Below are positions 24,001-27,041 of a DNA stretch of 27,041 nucleotides, one piece after another; the stretch's first letter is position 1, and every line of letters starts with the position of its first letter. Position numbers: made by a program. Source of the stretch: a virus; the UHGV virus genome UHGV-1672366. The stretch is one strand, 5' to 3'.

Positions 24001-27000
24001 TTTAATTAGAGCGGTAAACGAGTAGTTACGTCCCCGCTCTAATGATTCCATACATCCCTTAGACTCTTTAGCAAGTTTAGCCCGGTACTCGTATGTGGGA
24101 TCATCAACGATGTTTAGTTTCACACCACAAATAACCGCCATGTCGTCACCAGCGGCACGTTGTAGTGGAATAACACTCGCAATATTCATGCTATCTGCTG
24201 AAATTACAGCGGTGTAGCCAGCTTCTCTGGCAATCTTCACCGCGTTTTCTGCTTTTAGAGCCGACTCCCCAAGTGAGAAGTCAGTTCGAACCATCAGTGC
24301 CTTCATGTGTTTTTACCTTTCTGGTTTTTTTGATTTTGTCATTGGGGAAGCCTACGAACTTCCCATGCATCGAAGTCGCAACTTCTTTTGCTGATTGGTG
24401 ACAATCGGGCTTGTCTGGACACACCAGACAAGCCTTACCAGTTTCAGAAGCAGCGATAAGAGAGCCGAAACATCCTTTACGCACGATCAACCAAATATTT
24501 TTTGAACAACTTCACGAGCCGCTTGTGCAGAAGCTGAAGGGAGTTTGTTAATGAAAGAACGCTCAATACCTGTCACAAAGTCGCCTCGCATCATTCCAAT
24601 CTTGGCCGACAACAAAAGTTCACGAGGGCCAATTGGCTGACTGATAAGGTGTTCTTCGTATCCATCACGAACGATACCGGCAAACTTAACCATCTTTTCA
24701 GCGTATTCATCCACGATGCCTGCATTTATCAACATGTTGATCTCTGCGTCTTTGCTCATGTATTTCACATTCGAAACGATGCCAAAACGCGAAAAGTTCG
24801 CGGCGTTCTGGATGTTTGTACCCTGGTACAAGCCGGTTTCATCACCAGATCCGTTCGTGTTGCCAGTGGCAATGAAAGCAAACCGTTCATGCGGAGTAAT
24901 GCGACGCCATTCTGGAGTCGCCTCTTTGATGACTAACGCTTCACCTTCCAGCACTGGCTGATACACGCCAAGAATTTGTGGAAACGCAAAGTCGTATTCA
25001 TCCGCGAGGTAAACCCAGCCATGCTTCATTGCGAGCGCAAGCAAGCCAGGTTCGAAATACGTAGAGCCATCACGCGCCAGAATTTGCCCCGTAACATGTG
25101 CCTCTTCCATTGATGCTGTATGTTGGGCACGGATCAACGGACGATTGAGCAAAGCACATAGCTGTGTAGGCAATGACGATTTGCCTGTTCCTGCATGACC
25201 CCACAAATAGCCAGGTATGCCAAGTTCTAGCATCATGAAAATATCTTTGATCAGTTCGAAGTCGCCATATACGTAGCCTTTCTTCACTTCGGGAACGAAC
25301 TCTGGATACGGCGTATTGACGTTGACGCTAACCATGAGCGGCGTCCCACGTTTTGTTCCGAGTTCTTCCACCGTTACGTTTAGCAGTTCGTGAGCTGCGA
25401 CCAGATCTGTCTTGTACTCAACTGTGCCTGTGTAGCCAGGGCTACTGGTCAAGCCAGAAGATTTGGCCATTTCGCTTTTTTGCTCGGCACGTTTAGCTTG
25501 AATTGCATCAAGTGCCTTTTTCGATAGCGTTGGCTCATCTGGAAACTGCGTTGTGTACATTTTCAGTACGGTGTCAGGATCGGCATCTTTTACTGACTCA
25601 GGAATGCCCTCGCAATTACCATTGGCTACATGGGACTTAAAATAGTGAAATGATTTGCCGCACCACTTGCAAACAAGGTAATCAGAAGGATTTTTTTCAT
25701 TTTGCAGTGCAGTAGTCGTCATGCGTTTTTCCTTTGTTCTCTAATGAGCGTTCAACTTCTTATATAAATATACCATTAACTATCGTAAGTGGTTACTTAT
25801 CGTTAAGGCTGTTTTATTCACTTCAAAATGATACGAGATAGTTCAGTAACTACAGATGAACCAAGACTATCAACGCTCGTTACCAGGGCATGATTTGAGT
25901 AAAATCTCTCCGGTGCGTCAGTCATGATGCCAATTGCCATCAAATCAATGTCAGTCTGCGTTTCAATTTGCTTCGCAACCGAACGCAAATGAGCGTCAAA
26001 ACCTCTCCCAACAGCCCACGGCGCGCCATCACTCAGAACAAGCATGATCTTCCTGTCCTCCATGCGACCGGAAAATAACGATGCAAGGCTGGCTATGCTT
26101 TCACCATCCACGTTATTAAGAAGTGGGAATGTGTAGCCTACGCACCCCATACGTGAGCGAACTTCGCGAGAATTTACCTTTTCATTCCAATTTTTGATGA
26201 TAGGTAGCATTAAAGATTCAAAGCGAGAGAACTCATACTTGACAGCCTTAAGTTCTCCTGCCGCCATATGACTACCAAATGTAGTGAAGCCGGTGATAAT
26301 GTTGGGAACATTTATTCGATCAAGGGCATCGGCGATGGTATATGCACTTGCAAGAGCCAATTGTATCGTTATACCACTCATTGAACCTGATAAATCAATC
26401 ACTTGTTGAACACAGGCGTTAACGGCTTTAGATTCTTCTTTTTTACGAAACACGCGATCATCATTCATTGCTAATCTGTAGATACTAGAACCATGAATGC
26501 GCCCCCGACGCTGGCCCGGTATAAACTGAACTCTGTTTCTGCTTGCTATTGCTCGCTCCAGGTCTTTTGCCAGCGTCGACGAAACACCTGACGAAAGATG
26601 CTTTTCAATATATTTGTCGAAGAGCTGGTTGCCTTCAGGAACGATGCGATAGCGGCTGATTGGATATCCTCCTAAATCAATATCGGAGAATGTTTTAATA
26701 AGCCGTTTGATATGGGCTTCTGCCTGATCAATCGAGCCGATGAAGTCGTATGAGCGATTGTATGGCCTGTATTCGCTTTTCGAGCTTTCTGTTAACTCGC
26801 TTTTAATCGTTTCGGATAGAGCATCTTCTGTCATGCCTCCGACTTCATCTTCTATGCTATCCAGCTCCTCTAAAGCCTCTTCCAGACTCATTTTTGGCGG
26901 AGTTGGAATATCTGAAGAGCCGTCTTCTGTCGTTTTTCTTTTTTCGTGGTCAGCGGTTAATGATTCTGACGCCGCGTTATCAGAAGCATCAGAATCTGAT

Positions 27001-27041
27001 ACCTCTTTATCATTTTCTGTATCATCGAATATTGTTTCTGA

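Follow-up and report, generated by a model that had tools for sequence, protein, structure and literature searches.

The stretch of DNA analysed here, referred to as the window, is 27,041 nt of the virus genome UHGV-1672366, which by nucleotide identity is an SSU5-like phage-plasmid; it carries, side by side on the minus strand like all genes of their locus, a gene for an AAA+ ATPase and a gene for a protein with a von Willebrand factor A (vWA) domain plus a MIDAS (metal ion-dependent adhesion site), here called the adaptor. The pair is almost certainly a mobile-element form of CobS/CobT, the motor proteins of cobaltochelatase, and very probably does not work as a cobalt chelatase in this element. 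We lean towards a protein as its client. The reading that we prefer, tentatively, is an ATP-driven protein-remodelling or processing machine of an early DNA-establishment module, possibly with a role in anti-restriction; a role in anti-restriction specifically, argued by analogy with IncC conjugative plasmids, is possible but doubtful. A first-pass annotation of the sequence had proposed a MoxR-type AAA+ and vWA/MIDAS couple resembling CobS/CobT, and matches in Pfam, PHROG, and the Protein Data Bank (PDB), with scores well outside what chance would give, bear this out: domain searches did not place the proteins in an unrelated family, and the motifs from which the couple was recognized (GHAGTGKS, LADEYDF, and DLSGSMSG) are present on the minus strand (Table 1).

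The ATPase matches the solved CobS of Brucella (9ujv; E 1.4e-26, 31.5% identity over 267 aligned positions, 96.4 bits) and after it midasin, CbbQ, and NorQ. Its AAA+ catalytic set is complete, each residue having a Brucella counterpart, and every residue of the set is invariant in 16 homologues, down to 26% identity. The alignment with CobS begins at query residue 142, behind an N-terminal extension of 140 aa that is missing from canonical CobS; the extension contains a zinc-finger-like motif, in which C18 and H31 reach at least 90% conservation across 16 homologues that go down to 45% identity. At its other end the alignment stops at Brucella residue 315, which corresponds to the C-terminus of the ATPase, and Brucella CobS helix alpha10 (A322-V326), which contacts the CobT N-domain (CobT_N), has no counterpart.

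The adaptor gene continues beyond position 27041, so that 295 adaptor residues (~885 nt), including the N-domain with its HExxH motif, lie outside the window; the full length of ~702 aa is known from the 99%-identical relative P0121 and from L001:11025-13133, and statements on the N-domain rest on full-length relatives. In the full-length relative Pfam detects both the CobT N-domain (PF06213, 9.2e-27) and CobT_C (7.8e-82), and the adaptor is built on the CobT plan, with an N-domain, a disordered acidic linker, and a shaft followed by a vWA domain with MIDAS. The AlphaFold2 (AF2) model of P0121 has a mean predicted local distance difference test score (pLDDT) of 83.8 and a predicted template-modelling score (pTM) of 0.76; it comprises two folded domains, and residues 235-333 are predicted to be disordered (pLDDT < 50). 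The first-pass annotation had described an acidic N-terminal region extending past the window: the gene does extend past it, but in the model the acidic stretch is the linker between the two domains and not the N-terminus. The shaft-equivalent segment is among the best conserved parts of the adaptor, with G471, R473, G475, H478, D489, R491, and F493 invariant or nearly so among relatives; in Brucella CobT the shaft (Q373-R413) lies ahead of the vWA domain and enters the CobS ring pore upon nucleotide binding (bioRxiv 10.64898/2026.07.21.739949). MIDAS residues D511, S513, S515, and D633 are invariant, and T548 nearly so, in 60 sequences; the Brucella MIDAS is made up of D422, S424, S426, N518, and D546 (bioRxiv 10.64898/2026.07.21.739949). 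The closest structures to the adaptor C-domain in a Foldseek search are the NorD vWA domain in NorQD complexes (9qhe_G, E 4e-9) and the MIDAS domain of midasin MDN1 (8ql1).

The adaptor N-domain, as read from sequence and model, appears to be M48-like with an intact HExxH...E zinc-peptidase motif that has been lost in true CobT. The motif is made up of D73-H74-E75-x-x-H78 (DHEVAH) and E106-D107-x-x-x-E111. Its conservation was assessed in the best 150 representatives from a search of 1.84 billion 50%-identity cluster representatives, 146 of which are full-length: DHExxH is present in 142 of these 146 viral-type proteins, 27-57% identical, and H74, E75, H78, E106, and E111 are each conserved in 97-100%. 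HExxH occurs in none of 120 cellular CobT N-domains, looked for anywhere in the domain; at the place of the motif ~110 of the 120 read D-[SA]-x-[AS]-L-[RK], mostly DSMALR/K, and Brucella CobT reads GLGDSMALR. The motif is kept in distant mobile-element versions, including the 703-aa "peptidase" of cyanophage Syn33 (HEVGH, LEDARIE), the CobT of phage ICP2 (HECYH), the protein of Rhizobium phage RHEph10 (HEVAH), and the Vcrx095-type vWA protein of IncC plasmids (HEAAH).

A model of the N-domain alone (pLDDT 91.5) has the layout of a zincin, with a helix, a three-stranded sheet (residues 31-33, 39-42, and 48-53), an HExxH helix (residues 62-81, carrying H74-E75-x-x-H78), and a glutamate helix (residues 97-117, carrying E106 and E111). 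Foldseek with this model gave no significant match, solved M48 peptidases included, and direct PDB searches for the canonical CobT N-domain, with a single sequence or a 4-sequence profile, gave only noise; the link from the adaptor N-domain to that of CobT was made through Paraburkholderia CobT and Pfam PF06213. The phage N-domain is 32.8% identical to the IncC protein over 187 residues, whereas similarity to Brucella CobT is not detectable by direct search. An N-terminal metallopeptidase domain on viral vWA partners of MoxR ATPases has been noted before in T4-like jumbo phages (PMC7824862), and the "peptidase" label of cyanophage cobT has been regarded as a mis-annotation (PMC8651126).

The genes of the window make up a T4-like module of replication, recombination, and nucleotide genes, whose products are NrdAB, an SbcC/Mre11-like pair, a Rep3 initiator, RecA, a 5'-3' exonuclease, a gp32-type single-stranded DNA-binding protein (SSB), a UvsY-like protein, DnaE, and then the pair. 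Over positions 20793-27041 its DNA is 98.2% identical to Escherichia phage CMS-2020a, 97.1% to PhiR41_1, 93.7% to phage Cyrano, and 80.4% to Salmonella phage SSU5. The SSU5 genome has its structural, lysis, and tail genes at 1-29 kb and its copy of the pair at 42.7-46.4 kb, among genes for ligase, helicase, primase, DnaE, SSB, and RecA. The physical coupling of the pair to the replicase, pointed out in the first-pass annotation, is not a local accident; loci from metagenomes and isolates (L003, L004, L005, L010, L011, and L015, the last being Rhizobium phage RHEph10) share the order CobT-like, CobS-like, one to three small genes, DnaE, gp32, exonuclease, RecA, and so keep CobT-CobS-x-DnaE together. 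In these loci the ATPase is 45-47% identical to that of the window, or the adaptor only 30-31% identical; their DnaE has a uracil-DNA glycosylase (UDG) domain, and the genes between cobS and dnaE vary. In three of them (L004:9182-9856, L005:9182-9859, and L015:8224-8859) the stretch from the CobS-like gene to dnaE codes for a protein resembling sigma-70 region 2, and the window has no such gene there.

Beyond the DnaE loci, two unrelated kinds of element, a cyanophage and conjugative plasmids, have the pair in a similar setting. The T4-like cyanophage Syn33 has the order gp46, nrdC, "peptidase" (CobT-like), two small genes, cobS, one gene, gp45, gp44, gp62, which puts the pair next to the clamp and clamp-loader genes; in ICP2 the pair is ~4 kb upstream of the DNA polymerase gene; and in IncC conjugative plasmids genes for a CobS-like ATPase and a CobT-like HExxH-vWA protein flank ssb-bet-exo. 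The pair thus goes with genes for replication and recombination at large, and not with DnaE as such. The pair is already known and is annotated in thousands of records as "porphyrin biosynthesis" proteins: public databases hold both proteins at 99% identity (the clusters number 1077 and 3307 members) under the names "porphyrin biosynthesis protein", "AAA family ATPase", and "cobaltochelatase CobT-related protein", and 510 phage records were matched for cobS/cobT. A third kind of CobS/CobT-like pair was seen on a Paraburkholderia sabiae plasmid (L006:2836-5786), with a 401-aa ATPase, the order S then T, an adaptor that lacks HExxH, and glycolysis genes, not cob genes, as neighbours.

In the window cobS, a small open reading frame (ORF) with four cysteines (the Cys4 ORF), and dnaE form a tightly packed unit with dnaE as its last gene. 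Since their reading frames overlap (the Cys4 ORF by 4 nt with the cobS stop and by 26 nt with the dnaE start), co-transcription of the three can be argued for. The Cys-rich ORF that had been suspected between the ATPase gene and dnaE is a genuine gene under conservation: it shares 87% identity with SSU5_051 against a DNA identity of ~80%, and all four cysteines and the histidine (C7, C21, C24, C30, and H31; codons 24398-24472) are invariant. Its module GCxGS...CxxC...C matches the N-terminus of 167-184-aa proteins that precede DnaE in distant relatives, directly so in most of them, and by sequence comparison the window's 69-aa ORF is a short form of this family. Homology to cobS neighbours in cyanophage Syn33 or ICP2, or to Vcrx090 of the IncC plasmids, was not found. 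A terminator-like hairpin just 3' of the dnaE stop, found by consensus scan only, may be the end of the unit; the count of terminator-like sites in the region is not above shuffle expectation.

The 95-nt gap between the vWA and ATPase genes contains a palindromic motif followed by a conserved AT-rich block, TATATTTATATAAGA. The first-pass annotation had placed a motif-bearing promoter at 25784, from which the pair and dnaE would be co-transcribed. The motif is real: ATAAGTANNNACTTAT, with at most two mismatches, has 14 matches at 8 window sites versus 0.55 expected, all 8 sites are in gaps upstream of minus-strand genes, and motif and AT-rich block are kept between the window and SSU5 amid diverged flanks. 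No sigma-70 promoter consensus was matched on the minus strand at 25723-25817, however, and in SSU5 the motif is genome-wide, with 46 matches versus 1.55 expected at 25 sites that include the structural module; copies between structural and tail genes at 3544, 9071, 15589, and 21937 led us to reject the idea that it marks a regulon confined to replication. We also rejected an RNA hairpin or terminator, the intergenic RNA folding no better than shuffles (z = -1.77) and lacking a T-run. The motif is a real intergenic signal and is not evidence for a replicase-specific promoter; it could bind a dimeric regulator, or serve the element as a promoter or processing signal of its own. The vWA gene cannot be transcribed from it as had been supposed, because the motif lies downstream of that gene, between it and the ATPase gene; only cobS, the Cys4 ORF, and dnaE are downstream of the motif.

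Experimental data on a mobile-element homologue of the pair come from the "host defence evasion" (hde) operon of IncC plasmids, whose AAA+ protein Vcrx089 is 30% identical to the window ATPase over 285 aa (E 1e-27, 98.6 bits) and gave tblastn matches in all phage loci. Deletion of vcrx089-090 lowers transfer 25-fold into a V. cholerae recipient with type I restriction-modification (R-M); the defect is gone in a delta-hsdR recipient, and complementation occurs only in the recipient (PMC7498323). When these genes are deleted from pKAZ3, restriction goes up 906-fold for EcoKI and 424-fold for EcoBI (PMC11602122). The published hde work covers only vcrx089-093, and an RT-PCR (reverse transcription-PCR) primer in vcrx094 puts at least vcrx094 on the same transcript (PMC7498323). 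In the IncC plasmid pNDM15-1078 (L018:3804-11797), genes for DUF3150 and CobT-like HExxH-vWA proteins follow exo in the hde operon, whose first gene encodes the CobS-like ATPase.

A mechanism can be drawn up by reference to the Brucella complex, in which CobS is a hexameric spiral or ring, CobT consists of an M48C-peptidase-like N-domain, a ~90-residue disordered linker, and a vWA C-domain, and CobN is held between both CobT domains, near the MIDAS (preprint, bioRxiv 10.64898/2026.07.21.739949). By this model six ATPase subunits would form a ring, the adaptor shaft would enter the ring pore on nucleotide binding, and ATP turnover would move the adaptor, with the client held between the N-domain and the MIDAS face. 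The client would be a protein that is remodelled and possibly cleaved, and the genomic context suggests that the machine would be produced alongside the products of the replication and recombination genes, as the DNA enters the cell or begins to replicate. The most specific guess, which rests on the loss of all anti-restriction in the double deletion of vcrx089 and vcrx090, is that a host DNA-targeting defence, for example type I restriction, may be disabled. Carried to its full extent, this would make the pair an ATP-driven, MIDAS-targeted zinc protease or remodeller that frees incoming phage, phage-plasmid, and conjugative DNA of the host's DNA-targeting defence complexes, above all type I restriction enzymes, by stripping or cleaving them, which we consider unlikely; if true, the "cobS/cobT auxiliary metabolic genes" of marine and gut viromes would be anti-defence genes and not vitamin B12 genes.

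Several points weigh against the remodelling and anti-restriction reading. The IncC phenotype is that of a double deletion, and a homologue of the second gene product, Vcrx090, is absent from the window, SSU5, and eight related loci (tblastn, E <= 0.01). The IncC vWA gene (Vcrx095-type) is not among the five genes flagged by transposon sequencing (TnSeq). The ATPase is no closer to Vcrx089 than to true CobS (bit scores and identities above), and because these distances are equal the transfer of function from Vcrx089 rests on context. PADLOC matched neither protein of the pair nor the Cys4 ORF product, by which membership of these in a defence system was rejected, the library being one of defence and not of anti-defence systems. 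HExxH is lost in 4 of the 146 viral-type proteins, and synteny at 30% identity can be the inherited module order of related phages. Apart from these points, EcoKI sites number 1 in the window versus 3.7 expected, a depletion that is not significant. The reduced 62-kb plasmids of Escherichia albertii were considered as a natural test of dispensability and proved uninformative, as the PLSDB table omits pseudogenes.

The gene order lends itself to other explanations, of which an assembly or maturation factor for the replisome, loading, swapping, or activating the replicase by acting on the element's own DnaE or on borrowed host Pol III accessory subunits, is unlikely. It would account for the overlapping or abutting cobS, Cys4 ORF, and dnaE, for the CobT-CobS-x-DnaE order in at least six diverged loci, and for the position of the Syn33 pair directly ahead of clamp and clamp-loader genes, and it accords with the habit of MoxR-class pairs, which typically mature a specific partner enzyme and whose NorD vWA and midasin MIDAS domains are the best structural matches. 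Yet other elements combine the pair with unrelated replicases (T4-type family B and the ICP2 polymerase), and the IncC loci have it without an adjoining polymerase, and for this reason DnaE is not its general client; a conserved peptidase motif, too, is unexpected in a pure assembly chaperone. Insertion of metal into the PHP domain of DnaE was judged improbable on the N-terminal MVRTDFS, read without formal alignment, which is not the first His-x-His metal motif. A virion morphogenesis chaperone and processing protease, the role published by Iyer et al. for what is apparently the same architecture (a vWA protein with N-terminal metallopeptidase and a MoxR AAA+ ATPase) by analogy with a MoxR-vWA pair needed in tail development of Acidianus two-tailed virus (PMC7824862), would fit the conservation of HExxH through proteolytic processing, but it is improbable here: the SSU5 pair is far from the structural genes and within the replication genes, as in every relative examined and in Syn33, and IncC conjugative plasmids have the pair and make no virions. 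The proposal of a chaperone- or insertase-like machine in the first-pass annotation holds as far as the AAA+ and vWA/MIDAS couple goes; the M48-like N-domain with HExxH...E and the 140-aa ATPase extension set the pair apart from a plain MoxR-vWA insertase, and the only data on a mobile-element homologue point to anti-restriction and not to cofactor insertion (PMC7498323, PMC11602122). Its statement that such pairs recur in phage genomes is supported (PMC8651126).

Viral cobS/cobT are usually read as true auxiliary metabolic genes, whose products would dock on host CobN (or a subunit of ChlH/BchH type), promote the insertion of cobalt, and so raise the B12 supply for making nucleotides; such a genuine chelatase motor is hardly credible in this host range. 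Homology to CobS and CobT extends over whole lengths with ATPase, shaft, and MIDAS intact, the genes are near nucleotide-metabolism genes, and the role has been proposed for archaeal and cyanobacterial viruses, whose hosts have CobN (PMC8651126; PMC3037004). The scores, however, are 88.7 bits for the ATPase against the CobS equivalog TIGR01650 (cut-off 558.55) and 63.4 bits for the full-length adaptor relative against the CobT equivalog TIGR01651 (cut-off 759.05); because both are far under these NCBI thresholds, the two are, on the sequence evidence, homologues of CobS/CobT and not the chelatase itself. The counterpart of CobS helix alpha10 is missing, and the peptidase motif of the N-domain is the one not found in cellular CobT. 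The element's ribonucleotide reductase is of class I (NrdA with ATP-cone, and NrdB) and so independent of B12, by which a supply of B12 for a class II reductase was rejected. ICP2 is a phage of Vibrio cholerae, and enterics are the hosts of IncC plasmids. The hosts of the element's lineage, E. coli, Salmonella, and Klebsiella, are not known to use a CobNST step, the anaerobic pathway running through CbiK. Salmonella relies on the anaerobic route, and E. coli needs ~30 heterologous genes, including cobN, cobS, and cobT, for B12 synthesis (PMC6249242). CobN is not annotated in positions 1-100,000 of the 103-kb SSU5 genome and was not found in the window; E. coli genomes were not searched.

The preferred reading, a remodelling or processing machine of the DNA-establishment module, would bear on the counting of "metabolic potential" in viromes, where cobS/cobT are among the most often listed viral "auxiliary metabolic genes" and are core in T4-like cyanophages, and on the passage of phage-plasmids and resistance plasmids through restriction barriers. 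The present lineage resides in E. coli, Salmonella, and Klebsiella, to which a chelatase reading should not be able to apply; the intact peptidase motif of the adaptor and the IncC AAA+ homologue, one of two co-deleted genes for EcoKI/EcoBI evasion, give a concrete hypothesis, and the relative PhiR41_1, with E. coli K-12 MG1655 as its host on record, offers a tractable host that carries EcoKI.

Table 1. Features of the CobS/CobT-like locus in the window (residue numbers of the adaptor refer to the full-length protein).
Feature	Position	Strand	Basis or remark
CobT-like vWA/MIDAS protein, residues 296-702 (407 of ~702)	25818..27041	-	Pfam CobT_C 4.3e-83; phrog_1576 4.6e-177
Acidic inter-domain linker, predicted disordered	26928..27041	-	translation; AF2 of P0121
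CobT 'shaft' equivalent, residues ~462-502	26421..26543	-	position relative to MIDAS Asp, alignment to 9uka_G
MIDAS motif DLSGSMSG (DxSxS: D511, S513, S515)	26373..26396	-	read from sequence
Further MIDAS residues T548 and D633	26283-26285 and 26028-26030	-	
Palindromic motif ATAAGTAACCACTTAC	25785..25800	.	in the vWA-ATPase gap
Motif sites ATAAGTA-N3-ACTTAT	828-843, 5544-5559, 10228-10243, 14033-14048, 15655-15670, 19173-19188, 19638-19653, 25785-25800		
CobS-like AAA+ ATPase, 411 aa	24487..25722	-	Pfam AAA_5 1.1e-15; phrog_249 ("porphyrin biosynthesis") 5.7e-107
Zinc-finger-like motif C18-x2-C21-x4-H26-x4-H31	25630..25671	-	in ATPase N-extension
Walker A GHAGTGKS (G175-S182)	25177..25200	-	Brucella CobS G71-S78
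Walker B LADEYDF (D241/E242)	24988..25008	-	Brucella CobS D141/E142
Sensor-1 N288	24859-24861	-	Brucella CobS N186
Arg finger R312	24787-24789	-	Brucella CobS R210
Sensor-2 R367	24622-24624	-	Brucella CobS R271
Cys4 ORF, 69 aa	24281..24490	-	phrog_6337 2.2e-44; start TTG 24490 or GTG 24484
DnaE-type DNA polymerase III alpha subunit, 1172 aa	20788..24306	-	Pfam PHP, DNA_pol3_alpha, finger, HHH_6; phrog_405 E = 0
Terminator-like hairpin 3' of dnaE stop	20734..20748	-	consensus scan only; possible unit end

Other features of the element were noted in passing. DnaE (20788-24306; compare L009:10148-14398) starts MKALMVRTDFS, without the His-x-His expected in an active PHP exonuclease. It is extended at its C-terminus by ~150-250 residues (phrog_4335, phrog_13175), which in relatives form a UDG domain; in E. 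albertii plasmids a gene for an HNH endonuclease splits dnaE, and the part coding for the C-terminus bears the annotation uracil-DNA glycosylase. The interval between dnaE and the UvsY-like gene contains, on the opposite strand and as an insertion, two genes for HdeA/HdeB-family acid-stress periplasmic chaperones (20010-20342 and 20417-20755, + strand; Pfam 5.4e-28 and 4.7e-24), which are missing in the closest phages and 99.3% identical in seven 62-kb E. albertii plasmids. The cargo in this slot is an excisionase-like regulator in SSU5 and a cold-shock protein in Klebsiella phage pJN2-26; PhiR41_1 has none there and has a gadW-like regulator upstream of cobT instead. A Rep3-type plasmid initiator is encoded on the opposite strand at 11213-12427 (+; Pfam Rep3_N 5.3e-9), and the ~1.8 kb at 11343-13188, which lack a long minus-strand ORF and hold the Rep3 gene, are probably a plasmid replication region with an origin. 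The RecA-like gene encodes 357 aa in the window (15715-16788) versus ~780 aa in PhiR41_1 (L001:679-3018), and that of a metagenomic relative (L010:16986-end) has an intein (Pfam Intein_splicing), so that in some members of the family the recombinase seems to have taken up mobile insertions.

Among known systems, the pair resembles the CobS/CobT motor of CobNST (9ujv, 9uka) in having an AAA_5-type ATPase, ~31% identical and with the full catalytic set, encoded adjacent to an adaptor whose family has N-domain, acidic disordered linker, shaft, and vWA domain with full MIDAS. It differs in bit scores 6- to 12-fold under the equivalog cut-offs, in the 140-aa zinc-finger-like N-extension of the ATPase and the lack of the C-terminal CobT_N-contacting helix, in an adaptor of viral type that keeps HExxH...E where CobT has DSMALR/K, and in the order T then S within a mobile-element replication-recombination module, in which no CobN client is apparent. 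With both phage families matched and the genes adjacent in a phage genome, the pair is a member of the viral 'cobST' group (PHROG 249 and 1576), which is found in T4-like cyanophages, ICP2, haloarchaeal viruses, and SSU5/pHCM2-like phage-plasmids; it shares the HExxH N-domain with cyanophage Syn33 and ICP2, and the zinc-finger-like ATPase N-extension, the Cys4 ORF, and the linkage to dnaE are specific to the DnaE-module lineage as against other viral cobST.

The hde operon of IncC and SXT/R391 elements, with the order vcrx089, vcrx090, ssb, bet, exo and behind these the DUF3150 and vWA genes, is alike in that both are on enterobacterial mobile elements with genes for SSB, recombinase, and exonuclease, and in a downstream vWA protein that is CobT-like over its full length and keeps HEAAH; it differs in an ATPase without N-extension and in having five genes between the ATPase and vWA genes, and an anti-restriction phenotype is known only there. 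With the MoxR-class pairs (NorQ/NorD, CbbQ/CbbO, RavA/ViaA, and the midasin MIDAS) the window pair, an AAA_5/MoxR-clade ATPase beside a vWA protein with intact MIDAS, shares the ATPase clade and the principle of a ring ATPase with a MIDAS adaptor on a client protein; their adaptors, however, lack a peptidase domain, and their clients are known metalloenzymes encoded alongside. The MoxR/vWA-metallopeptidase pair of group 2.2 jumbo phages (Iyer et al. 2021), compared by description, has the same architecture and differs in its proposed role, virion assembly, whereas the place of the genes here and in IncC plasmids speaks for a role that is early and concerned with DNA.

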